A stretch of 63,999 nt of DNA, filler included, from Basidiobolus ranarum (Eukaryota), in NCBI GenBank assembly GCA_040143965.1. It is 3 parts of 3 records of this genome, joined end to end, with 100 filler letters (N's around TTAATTAATTAA, not from the genome) between each part and the next. Parts side by side here need not be neighbours in the genome. Positions count along the whole stretch, not along the records: positions 1 to 23,256 come from JASJQH010007045.1; 2 more parts are not named here. One strand, written 5' to 3'. Both the position numbers and the translations under genes were made by a program. Below are positions 4,129-20,648 of the stretch, in pieces (within the stretch, counting starts at the first letter, position 1; each line of letters starts with the position of its first letter). Below the pieces are notes generated by a model. The model was not told where the DNA came from, did not search any database, and worked only from the letters and a program-made list of their open reading frames with translations.

Positions 4129-4717
4129 GTTAGATAGTGGCTGTTTTGGGTGATTACCAATGGCTAAGAAGATAGTCAAGTGTATCTCTCTTTGGTTTTT
4201 CTGCAAGCTTTTTATACAAGCAGGGTGGCTTGTGTAGTGAACTATTTTTTGACTTAACTCCGGCCAAGCCACCTTACGTATAATCGTTGTCGATGGCGAT
4301 TTTTTGTAACTAAGCCTTTAAGCATGTGTTGAGCAATTTTTCATAATTTACAACGGTTCATCTATTCTAAAATCTTGCTATCATGTACTATCAATACGAT
4401 GATAACTCGTTGGAATGCTGTTACATCTCAGTCATCATCATTAGAAAATAGTACTCAAAAGAAGTATAAAAATAGAGGGAAAATACTGATCCATATGTGA
4501 TTACTACTGTACAGCTCTGGTGTATCTACAGCCATGCTACTTCATTACCACTCACAGCAACTTTGCTACAAGGCCGCTGTCTTAGTAAGAAATGCTACAA
4601 AAATAACTGTTATCGGGTTGTTCATCAAGACATAAGATATTACTTATCAACGATTATCCACGACAGAACTCAAATCAGTTTATTTATAAGAAGAATTAAC
4701 TGAAACATATTTGAAAG

Positions 4718-14123: not shown

Positions 14124-15607
14124 ATGAGAGGAGAAACTTCAATCTCAAAGCCTATCAAGCTCCTGTTCATCTTATATATATTACTTTCCTTCCTTTATAT
14201 ATTCCATTATTTCTATGAGGTACCTAATCAAGGTAAGTTGATCTCTCTACTGTATATTGAGTGAGCTTTCTTTAACACAATATCAGGCGCATTAAGATCA
14301 CCGCAACACACCCAAGAATGGATTCTGGAAGATACAGGTAAATAGACTCGTGTTATCGTGTAAAGAATAAGATACCAATCACTTTTCTTATCAATCAACC
14401 TATAGACGCTACAGTGTTCGATAGCCACAATAATCAATACATCTACTCGAAATTGTTCTCAGACGCTATGCAACCAACGGATTTAAAGGCATTCTATATC
14501 CGGGCTAAATCCATACATTCCCCTGATGATATCACGGTTACAACGTTGATTACCCCTGATAGATTTGAAGTATTTGAAAAGTTGATCAATAATTATCAAG
14601 GTAAGCTCTAGCAAAGATATCCTTTGAGAAGTTAACTCTAACGTATGTGAACCCAACTAGGTCCCATTTCAGCTACCCTCCATATTAATGATACCCCAGA
14701 AAAGGTGGAGATACTTGAACGACTCAACGAAATGTACACTAGAAATCCGTTGATGCGAAAGTATGTGGACGTTCATTTGATCGTGGACTCGTTCGAAAGG
14801 CAATTCAACTATTGGCGTAATGTGGCCCGATTCTTTGCTCGTACAAAATACATATTGATGCTGGATATAGACTTCTTCCCTTGCACTGATCTACGTCAGA
14901 ATCTACAACGGTATCCAAGATTGCTGGGCCAACTCCGTGAAGGAACCGCTGCGCTAGTGATTCCGGCATTTGAATATGAAGCCCTGGATGAAGGCCGGAA
15001 TTCAGACTACTTTCCACGCAATAAAAATGCTCTGATTAGATCAGTAACCACGGGGCATATCGATATGTTCCATAAAATTTGGCTACCAGGACATGGATCT
15101 ACCAATTATACTCGTTGGTACTCTTCGGAGCAACCATACCTTGTCACTGATTACAATCATAGTTACGAGCCATATGTGATTTTTAAAAAAGATGCGGTGC
15201 CCTGGTGTAACGAAAGATTTATCGGATATGGTGCCAACAAAGCCGCTTGCTTGTATGAGATCTATTTATCCGGAATCGAGTTCTGGGTCTTACCGAGTGA
15301 TTTCTTGATACACCAAAACCACGATTACCCAGAGACCACTCGTAGAAATGAGGTAGGAAGCGATCTTTACATGACAACTGAGCTGATTGATCTTTACATG
15401 ACAACTAAACTGATTGATACTGACATTCATTTGCAGAGAAAGTTAAACAAGAATATCTATGCCAATTTCCGTGAAGAAACCTGCTTTCGTTATTGGCGTA
15501 ATGCATTGGCACTTGGTACCTGGGATCAGCCACGTTCTAACAATGCTAAACAAGAATGTGGGAAAATCCCTGGATTTTTGGAGATACTAAATGAAGTGGA
15601 GTATTAA
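14124..15607 (+). CDS. Glycosyltransferase family 49 (LARGE/B4GAT1-like), type II membrane protein
   Basis: N-terminal TM (LLFILYILLSFLYIF), NYWRNVAR, DxD motif LDIDF, ALVIPAFE, YEPY, NERFIGYGANK. Confidence 0.88.
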
Positions 15608-15720
15608 TAGTCTCGTGTTTGATTGGTCCAGTTTCTTTGAAATATCCGAATATTCCCCCTCTCTTCCTTACATGTGACATAATTTTGTAACGAAGGCATT
15701 TATTTATTCAATTCTATGTT

Positions 15721-15842
15721 GACTTTCCCTTACGCAGGTATTACCCTGTTCAGGTTCAAAGGGTATGATCTCAGTCCATTTGTAGTATCCTGTTGACCCT
15801 TACCTAGGCCACCATCCAAAATACCACAGGACACCCCTAGTC
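15721..15842 (-). ncRNA. TPP (THI-box) riboswitch aptamer in the 3' UTR of THI5/NMT1
   Basis: The minus strand reads GACUAGGGGUGUCC...GGACUGAGAUCAUACCCUUUGAACCUGAACAGGGUAAUACCUGCGUAAGGGAAAGUC. P1 GACU/AGUC, P2 AGGGGU/ACCCUU, long P3 (UGUGGUAUUUUG/CAGGAUACUACA), conserved CUGAGA, and P4-P5 with UAAU loop and GCG. Lies ~97 nt after the THI5 stop. Confidence 0.95.
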
Positions 15843-15938
15843 TCCAAAAGAATGTTTCAAATAGATTCAAATAAAATATAGAGTGGGTTTATGGTCAACA
15901 CTTAGTCTTCGTTAGTAAGGGTTGACCCACTCCAGTGC

Positions 15939-17153
15939 TTAGGCCTGGATGCCTGGATTGACCAAAGGTCTGCATGATTGGCATTCCTCCAAATCCCCAT
16001 TGTTAATACCAGTTTTAGTCTGTTCGGGAACATTAGGGTCAATCTCAGCTAACAAAGGCCAAGAAAGGAAGGAATTGGTCATGTTTTGCTTGAAGGCATC
16101 ATCAACAATACCTAAACGTTTACAATAGTTGGTAACTTTGTTCCAATCACGTTGAACATTCTTGAGATCTTTAGAGAAATAGACGAAAGAGCGATCGAAA
16201 ATCTTTCGATTGACTGGAGTGTTCATAGCTGGCTTGAGATCTATCAACAATTCGTACGCTTCCTCAGGTTTACCCTGAATGAAGTCCATACCTCTTTTGA
16301 TGGCTTTCATGAACTTCTCTACCTTTTCTGGATTCTCTTCTATGAATTTTTCATTTCCAATGAAAAGAATCTACTCAAAGCAAAAGTGGTTAGTGACAAA
16401 AGGAAACCCCATCAGGAAAATCTCCGAATTACCGAGCAGAAGCAGCAGCAACCGAGTTTAGCCAGTTCGTCGATTCGAAGCATGCGAACATCATCACGCT
16501 TGCGTCCTTGTTCGACACTCCACTCTTCCAGTTCGACCATTTGGACATTCTCAATACCTATACCACCATCAATCTCACCCTTCTGAATGGCTCTTGTCAC
16601 ATTCATACCAACACGAACAGGAGTGTAGTCTTCGGGAGTCATACCAAAATGACGAGTAAGTTCATCCAATTGAATCTTACCAAACTCCCCTACATAACCA
16701 ATCTTCTTTCCACGAAGAGATTGAAAGTCCGTAGAGATGCCCTTTGCAGATTCCAAATAAATCACACCAGTGAATGGTTCCTACATCGAAGGTACTCGTT
16801 AAACTCTAACCACTTTCTTTCATCTTGGTCATCATAGTTACATCAAGTAATGTTCCAATAGATTTGATTGGGAATCCTCGGGCTTTTCCTGCGATAGTAT
16901 GGATCATGGCCTTCAATCCAAGGTCAGCTTTACCACTGCCGATGATCTCAGTGACATCTACACATTATATGGTTGGATAAAGTGAAGTTCCAATGCAATC
17001 GAGGGACTACTTACCAGATGGATCGTTAGGCTCCAATATAGCCACCTTAATACCTTCATCTCCAAAGTATCCAAGCTTATGAGCGATGAATAAAGGAGCA
17101 TGGTAAGGAGTGGCATGCCAGTTGAGTAAGCAGGTAATCTTGTCGGTGGACAT
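15939..17153 (-). CDS. THI5: HMP-P synthase THI5/NMT1 (thiamine pyrimidine synthesis), multi-exon
   Basis: [29 protein letters not shown] (Lys/His motif), [20 protein letters not shown] motif. Confidence 0.96.
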
Positions 17154-18631
17154 ATTCAAAGAATCTAAAAAAATCAAGTTAAGAATATCTTGTTGATAGT
17201 TAACTGTGTTATGTCCATCAGCCTCTTCTTTTATACCTTCAACGGGCGCAGTGTTTGGGGAGATATTACGCATAGTGATGAGATGTGATATTTCACTCAA
17301 TTAGGAATGACTCGAGTCAGACGTATACCATTCCTACACTGTTTTCAACATCCCTAGGTGATTCAACCCTCGAAAAAAACCAGAAATCCTTTGCTGGAAA
17401 CGATCGACCATGCCGAGTGAAAGAAAGAGGATATAGTTGGTTGGAAATGGTATGATAGGATGGCTTAGCAGTACACCATGGTTTCACTAAATGCCAACTA
17501 ATTCCCAGTTTTGTTAGCAAACGCCACCTGGTTGTTAGTCACTGATATATCCATCATCTATCAACATCGAGCACATGCCTCCATAAATTTCAATTTTCAC
17601 CAATCATCGTCCTCGGTACTATATCTCAAATTTCTGTTGGGATCATTCACATCAATAGTGAGTGATATCTCTGCGAATACTAGTTAATTGTAGTATGAGA
17701 ATTTCTCACACAAGAGAGTCACCTCATCGCGAATCATAGTCAAAATCTGCTTCAATAGCAAGGTGAAACGGCTTTTAAAGCACGGATCAGAATGAAATAT
17801 AGCATGTAGCATAATCAAATTACTCATATCTAAGTATGTGGGACTATATCAATCTTTCCGATAGAAGGTACTTAATCCTCACTAGTCTTCAATTATGGGT
17901 ATTCTATAATTAAATGCTACTGCAATGACTTATTCTAGAAAGCTACATCCACATACTCTACCAAGGGTTTCTGCGAAGGTGCCATTTAAGGCTTGGAAGG
18001 GACATTGACTGTGTGATTCACAGCAAATCCACTCTATATGGGTTGAGAGGAAATTTTCGTGTGATGCATTGTGGGGTAAAGATTCACACACAATGTAATT
18101 ACTAGAGGAGTTGCATAGAGGGGAGCATAGCTATTGTTAATACTGTAATAGGAGAAACAGATTGTATCATGAAATTTGCTACCATTGCTAGAAAAAGTGG
18201 GATAATAATGGCCATGGAGTTGATTATCTTTCATCTGGAAGAATGATTGGGTTTGGTGTAGGTAATAGTGCCTGATGGATGGCAAAAAGTTACTATGTGT
18301 ACAGAGTGGATTATATTACTGTTGGAAGAAGATATAGCATTAGTGCTTAATGTCATTCATATATAGGTAGCAACCCAACCGTGTAAGTGTGGATATTCAT
18401 CTCTCTGAAGATATGTATACTGCAGAATGATCATCCTCAATCGACAATGATAGGAAATTTATTTGTGCATAGACAGTAGTGGTGCAGTGGTGCATAATCC
18501 CGTCGATTTCATACTGCTTTTACAATAACCGGAGCAATGACCACAAAGAAAATGTTGTGGATATAAAAGATGAAAGATCGCACCCATTGCTAGCCAAGAT
18601 CTACATTCCCTCCACAATAACTTTAAACAAC

Positions 18632-19294
18632 ATGCGTTTCGCCACCAATGCTGTTATCTGTTCACTAATTGCTGCCACCTGGGTAAATGCTGCTCCAACT
18701 CCAAGAAATGAAGCCAAGTACAGCCACACTAAAGAGTATCAGAATGCTATTCGCAATATCTATGAGCCACAAACTTATAAAGAACATAAATATGATGCTG
18801 ACAACCACAGGATTTACAGCAAACCTTCGCTATCTCGTGATGAGCAAACCTACGGAGAAGATGAATATATTAAAAGGAAGTTACAACTTGATGGAGAATC
18901 TGGGGGCATCAGCACGCCTGTCACTGATTTGGATGACAAACCGGATAGTAAGCAAACAACAGGGAATACCGACCCAACTAATGATGTGCTCAGCCCCATA
19001 GATACAGATTCCAACAACTGTTCAAATATCAAGGCAGCTCTAGTTTCGCAGGGTCTTCATGCGGAGGCAATTATTTGTTTAGATAAACTTCTGGTGATCT
19101 ACCCCTTCAAGGCCGTCAGCGATGAAAGTCAGCAAGAAATGTTGGCTCAAGTTGTATCGTTAATAGGAGGAGGAAGTTCTAGCGATGAGAAGGAGCTTTT
19201 AACTTGTAGTGCTATTAGAGCCCATCTTAGAGTTCTTGGAATACAGGTGGATGCGGAAGTATGCTTGACTGGGCTGATCCAAATCAATTTGTGA
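18632..19294 (+). CDS. Secreted hypothetical protein with two Cys-bounded C-terminal repeats
   Basis: ATG at 18632 gives signal peptide MRFATNAVICSLIAATWVNA. TATAAAA at ~18562. Internal KR site. Intronless. Confidence 0.75.
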   Translation: MRFATNAVICSLIAATWVNAAPTPRNEAKYSHTKEYQNAIRNIYEPQTYKEHKYDADNHRIYSKPSLSRDEQTYGEDEYIKRKLQLDGESGGISTPVTDLDDKPDSKQTTGNTDPTNDVLSPIDTDSNNCSNIKAALVSQGLHAEAIICLDKLLVIYPFKAVSDESQQEMLAQVVSLIGGGSSSDEKELLTCSAIRAHLRVLGIQVDAEVCLTGLIQINL

Positions 19295-20126
19295 AGTATA
19301 AGGATTGATTTATAACTTGTCTCATTTTATTGGCACTTTGCGTTCATTTTTATCGAGTATTTGCATATTAATAAATATATTTTGATTTTTTCCTTGAAAT
19401 GTAAAATGTCTATACTTAACGACAGAGGCAATTCCAAAAGCAATACCATGACAGTTGTGGACAAGTAAATTCCAACTACTGAATATCCATATTCATTTAA
19501 CCCACATATCCATCCATATGTTAGTCCGTTCGTGTAACAATGCTGTTTACTTTGCCTAAAAATGACTGCTAGAAGAGAGCTCATCTATAGTGATGGATTA
19601 ATACTAATTAAACAAATTCATTTGTATGGTTGATTTTGATTATTGATTTTAATATTTTGTACATGCACCGGTAACTACATAATGGCCCAAGCACCGTCCA
19701 TTCTGAGCGAACCTTTGTTACTAATTGGCTAGCAATGGATAGGATTTCCTAGATATAGTAGCTCCATTGAGTTCTCTTTGAAAACCTGTAATGCTAGTTG
19801 TTCAGATTCAGTAGATGATAAAAGCTCTACCTACTGCACATTAGTTAACTCATCTGTTTATAATAGTAGAATCTCTGATATATACTGAGGAACTAATCTT
19901 CAGTTCATTTTTATGCAGCAAAGAGTAATAACTAGCACTGCAACTTGCGTTTGAATATAAATCTTTCACTTGTCTGTCAGAGAATTTTAAATATTCTGCT
20001 CAATAATTCCACTTTTAGAAAATGTTAATCTGCTTGGATGTATTCATATCAGTTGTGCTTTAATAGTAATCTTCGACATTTACTCGGTTAATTAAACGGT
20101 TCAAAAAGGAATACATTATCACGACC

Positions 20127-20648
20127 TTAGGCACCAAATACTTGAGTCCAATAATTCCCATTGGCAACATATCCAGAACCAAAGGAGGTAAACTGCGGAT
20201 TCAAAATGTTTTGTCGATGTCCAGCAGAATTCATCCAACCTTCCATAACGAGATCTATACTAGTGTAGCCCATGGCTACATTTTCTCCGATAGCACTCCA
20301 TTTAAATCCAGTTTCAGTGACTCGTGTACTCAAAGGTCTTCCAGGTTCATCATGGGTCATTTGGCCAACACGAGCTTGATAATCAGTATGCTTCTGAGCT
20401 GCTTGCACCAAGTTGATGTCCAGCTTCAGAGGTTCACCCCCATTTTGTTGACGTTGCTGATTAACTAAAGCGAGCATTTTTTGAAGATCACCATTTTCAG
20501 AGACTGTTGCGCTTACTGGAAATATCTTTCCTTTCCTTTGACGTCGGTTAGGGTGTTGAGTAAAACTAACATCTTCAGGGCCAGTAATAGCCTGTATAGC
20601 TTGTAGGAGAAGAAAGGTTAAGCAAATAAGGGTTATCCAGCTTTTCAT
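20127..20648 (-). CDS. Secreted CAP/SCP domain protein (bacterial YkwD-like type)
   Basis: Signal peptide MKSWITLICLTFLLLQAIQA. Motifs VNQQR, AAQKH, GENVAMG, WMNSAGHRQNIL, YWTQVFG. Intronless. Confidence 0.92.
   Translation of the reverse strand: MKSWITLICLTFLLLQAIQAITGPEDVSFTQHPNRRQRKGKIFPVSATVSENGDLQKMLALVNQQRQQNGGEPLKLDINLVQAAQKHTDYQARVGQMTHDEPGRPLSTRVTETGFKWSAIGENVAMGYTSIDLVMEGWMNSAGHRQNILNPQFTSFGSGYVANGNYWTQVFGA

Follow-up and report, generated by a model that had tools for sequence, protein, structure and literature searches.

A TPP aptamer behind the stop codon of THI5/NMT1 in Basidiobolus ranarum, with a candidate splice donor in its P3 loop

The window analysed here, a stretch of 63,999 nucleotides joined from three records of the Basidiobolus ranarum genome assembly GCA_040143965.1, carries a THI5/NMT1 (HMP-P synthase) gene on its minus strand (Table 1). 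Four coding exons (17153-17015, 16957-16842, 16780-16433 and 16370-15939) encode 344 amino acids and end in a TAA stop codon at 15941-15939. The translation is 100% identical to a public B. ranarum protein (P0041), and a second public isoform (P0042), which starts at Met64 and is otherwise unchanged, ends at the same stop; the position of the stop codon is therefore secure. The B. meristosporus protein is identical at 301 of 344 residues (88%). The product matches THI5/THI13 structures with E values of about 1e-130, and it is placed among the THI5/NMT1 HMP-P synthases by PF09084, by the close THI5 structure match and by the presence of Lys62, His66 and a CCCxC motif, which we take to be functional residues of THI5.

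The neighbouring glycosyltransferase-49 gene is convergent with NMT1, limiting the space for an NMT1 3' UTR. Its stop codon (15605-15607, plus strand) lies about 110 nt beyond the aptamer described below, and its true last codons come after an intron within the main reading frame given in Table 1. From this stop, the first AATAAA (15870-15875, plus strand) is reached only once the whole aptamer has been passed, so that both 3' UTRs may cover the aptamer, in antisense overlap. A near-duplicated unit of about 30 nt is found at 15382-15419 (plus strand), where the glycosyltransferase gene has its last intron-like stretch.

Table 1. Features of the NMT1 locus and the two other aptamer loci of the genome; positions are those of the window unless a locus is named.
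Feature	Position	Strand	Basis
THI5/NMT1 (HMP-P synthase) gene	15939..17153	-	Pfam PF09084, exon model, public protein
Spacer hairpin between stop and aptamer	15879..15934	-	folding
TPP riboswitch aptamer (RF00059)	15848-15708; P1-to-P1 15842-15721	-	Rfam match
Extended P3 arm, 59 nt, in register with the SSS-aptamer P3	15774..15832	-	folding, alignment
12-nt P3-apex motif with 5' splice-site sequence AG/GTAAGG	15794..15805 (GT 15803-15802)	-	alignment
CUGAGAU pyrimidine-binding junction J3/2	15768..15774	-	Rfam consensus match
P4-P5 pyrophosphate sensor, UAAU loop, GCG, G-G spacing 18	15728..15754	-	Rfam match, PMC5882874 criteria
Overlapping AATAAA hexamers, candidate poly(A) signal right after P1'	15699..15708	-	motif search
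Candidate branch point, pyrimidine tract and TTTAG acceptor	15587..15608	-	motif search, speculative
Glycosyltransferase-49 main reading frame	14651..15607	+	PF13896 E 6.8e-46, ORF list
Aptamer of SSS-family transporter gene	L004, 141 nt after stop	sense	PF00474, Rfam match
Aptamer of single-exon sugar-porter MFS gene	L005, 140 nt after stop	sense	PF00083, 52.5 bits, just below cut-off

A cmscan search of the whole window returned a single Rfam match at gathering level, the TPP aptamer behind NMT1. The match scores 59.7 bits against a gathering cut-off of 54.3 (E = 3.4e-09) and spans the full model (1-105), with a 46-nt insert in P3 relative to RF00059. An earlier note, made from the sequence alone, had placed a complete aptamer here about 97 nt after the stop on the coding strand; its endpoints coincide exactly with the P1-to-P1 span, and the distance from the stop to P1 is 96 nt, with the gene confirmed by its Pfam domain, the public protein and the THI5 structures. 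All of the binding motifs are intact: CUGAGA(U) in J3/2, UAAU in L5, GCG, and a G-G spacing of 18 nt. These criteria, and the roles of J3/2 and P4-P5 in fungal TPP aptamers, are those set out in the accessible portions of PMC5882874. By every sequence and structure feature tested the element belongs to the TPP aptamer family, and it is linked to a thiamine gene on the sense strand, in non-coding sequence. As the note had also held, no aptamer appears upstream of the ATG: a permissive Rfam scan (E up to 10) of 15900-20500, which covers the NMT1 gene and 3.3 kb upstream, gave no TPP match.

Because the neighbouring gene is convergent, the aptamer is not the leader of another gene and can be assigned to NMT1 only. 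We infer that it is included in the NMT1 transcript, since none of the eight poly(A)-type hexamers tested occurs between the stop and the aptamer, while AATAAA first appears beyond it, in two copies at 15708 and 15704. A CATAAA variant is present upstream of the aptamer, in the bulge of the hairpin that occupies the spacer, and fungal poly(A) signals are degenerate.

To our knowledge, no riboswitch class other than TPP has been validated in eukaryotes, and all the characterised fungal examples that we know of act either from the 5' end or from within a coding intron. The Neurospora NMT1 and THI4 riboswitches are located in 5' introns, and that of NCU01977/DUR31 in a coding intron, according to the parts of PMC5997356 and PMC3597705 available to us; the contrast that had been drawn with the 5'-intron riboswitch of Neurospora NMT1 is likewise borne out by the accessible text of PMC5997356 and PMC10226581. 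In the available sections of a survey of fungi (Mukherjee 2018, PMC5882874) Types I-IV are described, all of them 5' of the open reading frame or in a coding-region intron, and none 3'. The Basidiobolus NMT1 aptamer shares with the NMT1 and THI4 riboswitches of Types I-IV, as those sections present them, the ligand class, the gene, the binding motifs and the 18-nt G-G spacing, but it lies 3' of the stop and so belongs to none of the defined placements (5'-UTR intron, coding intron, 5' UTR of a single-exon gene). Placement within a coding intron followed by an alternative last exon was considered and rejected: both public isoforms share the stop, and relatives share the type of tail.

Three TPP aptamers were found in the B. 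ranarum genome, and all three are on the sense strand and 3' of a stop codon, behind NMT1, an SSS-family transporter gene and a sugar-porter MFS gene. The Rfam search scored 49 of 2,030 candidates; a search with a P4-P5 core pattern, allowing up to three mismatches, recovered the same three loci and had no matches in controls. Since all of the aptamers found stand behind the stop codons of three unrelated gene families, the position is a trait of the lineage and not an accident. No TPP aptamer was detected in the examined flanks of the two THI4 copies (G000:C135 and G000:C2324/C1094; loci L006, L007 and L009) or at five SSS paralogue loci. Mucorales THI4 is listed with an aptamer in the part of the published table available, whereas both Basidiobolus copies are without one. 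The SSS, NMT1 and sugar-transporter gene classes are all known to bear TPP riboswitches in other fungi. The best relatives of the MFS protein outside the genus are Mucorales transporters (62-70%).

The SSS gene has an in-frame TGA at L004:2743-2745 (G000:C7446), 99 codons before its normal stop. The frame goes on past this codon and aligns without gaps to three paralogues, so the gene may be a broken (nonsense) allele, or the TGA may be an assembly error.

The NMT1 and SSS aptamers can be aligned almost without gaps. All 32 named pairs of P1-P5 are kept in both, with six two-sided (compensatory) changes, five of which are among the 16 pairs of P3; the changes fall in P3 and P1. This was matched in 9 of 500 shuffles, and slid controls were 37-55% paired, in a test that rests on two sequences and on a pair list named by the analyst. 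The retention of every pair through these changes suggests that structure has been under selection since the two aptamers split. The NMT1 P3 arm folds at -22.2 kcal/mol, and a fraction of 0.004 of 1,000 shuffles was as stable. The sequence and length of P3 vary among fungi (PMC5882874, in the portions available), yet its register is common to the two Basidiobolus aptamers, which argues that they are copies of a single aptamer, transferred between unrelated genes and afterwards selected for structure.

The compensatory changes in P3 and P1, together with the intact binding motifs, speak against the reading that the aptamer may bind TPP but exerts no thiamine control over NMT1, being a relic or serving some other role, with a loop motif inherited by chance. 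A further point against it is that the aptamers are confined to NMT1, SSS and sugar-porter genes, all of them gene classes with TPP riboswitches elsewhere among fungi. We consider such a non-regulating aptamer unlikely, while acknowledging precedents: in diatoms the 3'-UTR aptamers of THIC and SSSP show no response despite their conservation (bioRxiv 2022.01.04.474978, in the sections available), no structural switch is predicted for the NMT1 element, the sister SSS gene has an in-frame stop, and both THI4 copies are free of aptamers, so that another form of control may exist.

At the apex of P3 the NMT1 and SSS aptamers share the sequence AGGTAAGGGTCA, which includes the 5' splice-site sequence AG/GTAAGG (the slash marks the splice point). 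Given that 36 of 53 P3 columns are identical, the probability of a 12-nt identical run is 0.08. The interaction of AG/GTAAGG with the 5' end of U1, taken from B. ranarum's own genome, is predicted at -9.9 kcal/mol, the best of the 17 GT sites between the NMT1 stop and 15600. In 116 kb of DNA from the same genome, donors that match U1 this well have a density of 0.121 per kb, which corresponds to a probability of 0.007 within a 59-nt P3. A strong donor is present no more than 400 nt after the stop at three of three aptamer loci, compared with none of six aptamer-free THI4 and SSS paralogue flanks, a comparison in which the threshold was set after the site had been seen and two of the three aptamer loci are homologous. 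The MFS aptamer has no donor in its P3 loop; its strong donor lies about 95 nt after the aptamer. The P3-loop AG/GTAAGG is thus a candidate splice donor. If it is used, the platform would be unlike P4-P5 masking, P1 long-range pairing and P1 acceptor masking as published in the accounts accessible to us, and P3, usually deemed dispensable, would gain a function. In two Neurospora riboswitches P3 is in fact dispensable (PMC3597705, in the part available).

AGGTAAG was not found in the three supplement files of PMC11683625 (378 fungal aptamers) in the form in which these were available, where line breaks could hide a few, and the P3-loop donor is absent from the Mucorales aptamer sequences examined. 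In metagenome contigs a pattern combining the loop donor with CUGAGA had two matches, both of them chance, inside a bacterial glycosyltransferase gene and without an Rfam match. Viral contigs yielded no pattern matches, and no relatives among 35 candidate stretches; genome contigs returned 42 loci, all bacterial by their titles.

Two candidate acceptors lie downstream of the loop donor. The better-looking one, at 15587, has a good pyrimidine tract and would define a 217-nt candidate intron, and it is antisense to the last codons of the glycosyltransferase gene; sites of this type are found in 2.5% of random 220-nt windows, by criteria that were picked after the site had been seen. Another candidate, 15714, coincides with the end of P1' and has a poor pyrimidine tract. 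With loose criteria (a branch point and a YAG), 70% of random positions have an acceptor in the next 300 nt, and a de novo intron model derived from 116 kb was too weak for choosing an acceptor. A cassette exon bounded by the P1/P2 acceptor on one side and by the loop donor on the other is conceivable; it would measure 33 nt in NMT1 and 27 nt in SSS.

At the MFS locus a strong branch point and acceptor are situated 69 nt after the aptamer, a combination present in 0.6% of random windows, and this locus is the nearest of the three to plant geometry. Within L005:4383-4711 (G000:C7128) the acceptor at 4564 is followed by a 26-nt stretch, the strong donor at 4591 and an acceptor-like site at 4711. 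A 14-bp helix (4530-4543 with 4608-4621) encloses the acceptor and the donor, and an AATAAA is found at 4291, upstream of the MFS aptamer.

The interpretation we prefer, tentatively and with a little less than even confidence, is that TPP-dependent splicing of the 3' UTR from the P3-loop donor competes with polyadenylation and leads to decay. With little TPP, cleavage after the AATAAA just behind the aptamer would yield a stable mRNA whose tail is short and unspliced. Once TPP is bound, the aptamer in its closed form would hold the AG/GUAAG donor in the P3 loop, the P1 extension would cover the AATAAA, and the closed state would last long enough for splicing to a downstream acceptor. Splicing at 15804 would place an exon junction 135 nt after the stop, or remove the poly(A) signal, or both, and so lead to nonsense-mediated decay (NMD); an acceptor beyond 15699 would also take away the poly(A) signal, as in plants. 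High TPP would thereby lower NMT1 expression through altered 3'-UTR processing, by a logic that would be that of plant THIC but with the donor inside the aptamer. An acceptor within the aptamer, on the other hand, predicts the wrong sign for a biosynthetic gene, because such a site should be buried once TPP is bound. The B. ranarum genome has both Mago and UPF1. NMD of the EJC type operates in Neurospora, where the junction has to follow the stop by 50 nt or more (PMC6173133, which cites Zhang and Sachs 2015, in the passages available), and the accessible part of bioRxiv 2022.01.04.474978 states that all characterised eukaryotic TPP riboswitches act via splicing.

Control by splicing is favoured by the complete sense-strand aptamer, the 3' position at all three loci, the kept donor motif, and the distribution of strong donors between aptamer loci and aptamer-free flanks. 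It is weakened by the lack of a folding switch, the ambiguity of the acceptor, the in-frame TGA of the SSS gene, the absence of a loop donor from the MFS aptamer and the failure to find AGGTAAG in the PMC11683625 aptamer files. The non-significant P1 extension of NMT1 and an AATAAA predicted to be more paired in the free fold (both given below) count against it too. The modest probabilities for the upstream complement to the donor (see below) and for the 12-nt run, the dispensability of P3 in two Neurospora riboswitches and the inertness of diatom 3' aptamers weaken it as well.

Folding predictions gave no switch at the donor, which is 0.86 unpaired whether or not the aptamer is fixed. The predictions describe equilibrium secondary structure without ligand, kinetics or tertiary contacts, and hence neither exclude nor reveal a switch. 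An upstream element masking the donor was rejected as a candidate: the 9-bp upstream complement to the donor was not above shuffles (p = 0.13), and forcing this 9-nt stretch onto the donor raised the ensemble energy from -83.4 to -65.1 kcal/mol, about 18 kcal/mol uphill. Alternative pairings of P4' and P1' had energies of -63.0 and -73.7 kcal/mol, respectively, versus -83.4 kcal/mol.

The same predictions bear on control of the 3' end without splicing. TPP could make P1, together with its extension, close over the AATAAA (15708-15699); in a variant of this scheme, U1 bound at the loop donor would block cleavage without splicing. Either way, transcription would continue into the convergent gene and produce a long unstable tail. 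The first AATAAA does lie directly behind P1', the convergent stop is only about 110 nt past the aptamer, and long P1 extensions into A-rich sequence are found at the SSS locus (p = 0.007-0.018) and the MFS locus (0 of 2,000 shuffles). The NMT1 extension, however, is not significant (p = 0.07 and 0.16). The AATAAA is partly paired in this predicted extension, and its unpaired probability is 0.07 in the free fold and 0.37 with the aptamer fixed; it is thus predicted to be paired in the free fold too, and more so than in the aptamer fold, which is the wrong direction for masking. The same idea also failed for diatom THIC when examined by 3' RACE (bioRxiv 2022.01.04.474978, in the sections available). 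Taken jointly, the two splicing-free schemes seem to us improbable, though worth keeping in mind.

The predicted 3' end just past the aptamer would also agree with retention of the aptamer in the mature mRNA, where TPP would alter cytoplasmic stability or translation. Intron-less SSUA/THI5-like genes of Micromonas and Aureococcus have 3'-UTR aptamers, for which cytoplasmic action is put forward as a proposal only (PMC4260697, in the part accessible). We give this explanation little credence, as it would leave unexplained the strong splice signals at all three loci, and the literature examined holds no validated eukaryotic example.

The earlier note had proposed an analogy with plants, which stands for the 3' position and falls for the geometry. 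In plant THIC (Wachter 2007; Bocobza 2007), as described in the accessible text of PMC10226581 and PMC3597705, a TPP aptamer likewise follows the stop of an HMP-P synthase gene, AG/GG occurs at the P1/P2 junction (here CTAG/GGGTG, 15838-15837), and splice and poly(A) signals are close by. The plant gene, however, is THIC and the Basidiobolus gene THI5/NMT1. In the plants, again according to the accessible text of these papers, the aptamer is preceded by a donor, which P4-P5 masks, and by a poly(A) site, whereas Basidiobolus NMT1 has its one strong donor within the P3 loop and its AATAAA behind the aptamer, and no masking helix is predicted. Measured against plant THIC, the Basidiobolus element has the aptamer after the stop and the AG at P1/P2, and is without an upstream donor masked by P4-P5.

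A strictly plant-like mechanism would have an upstream donor masked by P4-P5 in the absence of TPP and spliced to the P1/P2 AG (CUAG/GGGUG), using the TACTAAC at 15917-15911 as branch point. The AG/GG acceptor of plant and green-algal aptamers is present, the upstream TACTAAC is perfect, and the SSS aptamer has CTGAC just 5' of the same AG. The stretch from stop to aptamer nonetheless contains no good donor, the best reaching -5.4 kcal/mol about 18 nt from the branch A, and no signal of the AATAAA type lies upstream of the aptamer. Moreover, the fold in which P4' pairs with the upstream stretch is about 20 kcal/mol less stable, and a donor in the last exon would delete a Cys-rich tail that is kept in relatives. 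We regard this mechanism as very improbable. The TACTAAC is part of the apical stem-loop of the spacer hairpin, which fills the interval between stop and aptamer, has a predicted energy of -17.8 kcal/mol (a fraction of 0.006 of 1,000 shuffles was as stable) and contains two stretches complementary to the P3 apex.

Aptamers in 3' UTRs are also reported from diatoms and prasinophytes (bioRxiv 2022.01.04.474978 and PMC4260697, in the parts available), and resemble those of Basidiobolus in their 3' position, in their association with NMT1-domain and SSS genes, and in an A-rich P1 by a predicted poly(A) signal. The diatom aptamers, as far as that material goes, are without splice signals and unresponsive to thiamine, while those of Basidiobolus have strong splice signals. 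After the negative outcome in diatoms, Basidiobolus offers an inexpensive way to ask if any 3' aptamer outside plants has a regulatory role.

The note's suspicion that 3' placements in early-diverging fungi might in some cases be catalogued already proved correct in an implicit sense. File 3 of PMC5882874 has one zygomycete row, which gives the Mucor circinelloides NMT1 aptamer at 1391367-1391482 (minus strand), in a gene span of 1391320-1392706, with the label 'Intron, Type III' and without discussion of a 3' position. The aptamer occupies part of the 163 nt at the low end of this span, and the other minus-strand NMT1 rows are at the opposite end. By these coordinates it is at the 3' end of the gene if the gene is on the aptamer strand, the table being without gene strand. 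PMC11683625 assigns each of its 75 Mucoromycota rows to a 5' UTR or an intron. Mucorales aptamers have a P2 of the AGGGGUG type, as do those of Basidiobolus, and the Mucorales sugar-transporter aptamers resemble the MFS aptamer by eye. The Mucor coordinates and these likenesses suggest that 3' placement may extend further, with cases standing unrecognised in tables already published. A labelling error for Mucorales aptamers in the two surveys (PMC5882874, PMC11683625) is likely, and re-annotation would be worthwhile.

Basidiobolus itself is absent from the supplements of PMC5882874 and PMC11683625 in the portions available, and a literature search returned no paper on a Basidiobolus riboswitch and no 3' fungal class; the tables of Moldovan 2018 may hold 3' cases. 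Further cases are possible in PMC11683625, among the 303 rows for Dikarya in file 2, and in file 2, parts 1-3, of PMC5882874, both available in part. The only fungal 3' UTR labels in the portions of PMC5882874 examined are two rows for Postia placenta eIF5B, an unrelated gene, and these aptamers, according to the same portions, were not validated by the authors' own folding test.

The occurrence of 3' TPP aptamers genome-wide in an early-diverging fungus, with a candidate platform that has its donor in P3, would be a new arrangement of an aptamer that is itself known. Such an arrangement may point to a little-noticed way of shutting off genes through the mRNA tail in early-branching fungi. A bolder proposal, which we think rather unlikely, is that a self-contained cassette with a P3-loop donor was copied between unrelated genes and couples TPP to 3'-UTR splicing and NMD, that 3' placement may be normal in zygomycete fungi, with the Mucorales mislabelled in surveys, and that these elements form a fifth fungal type independent of plants.

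Two minor features were seen toward the 5' end of NMT1. Intron 1 (17014-16958, minus strand; 57 nt) keeps the reading frame and contains an early TAG; its retention would fit the public isoform P0042 that starts at Met64, an isoform that would be without Lys62. The interval 17236-17164 (minus strand) has TATAAAAG about 80 nt 5' of the ATG and a stretch that resembles a branch point and acceptor and ends 10 nt before the ATG. This could be the remnant of a 5'-UTR intron without an aptamer, or it could be due to chance.
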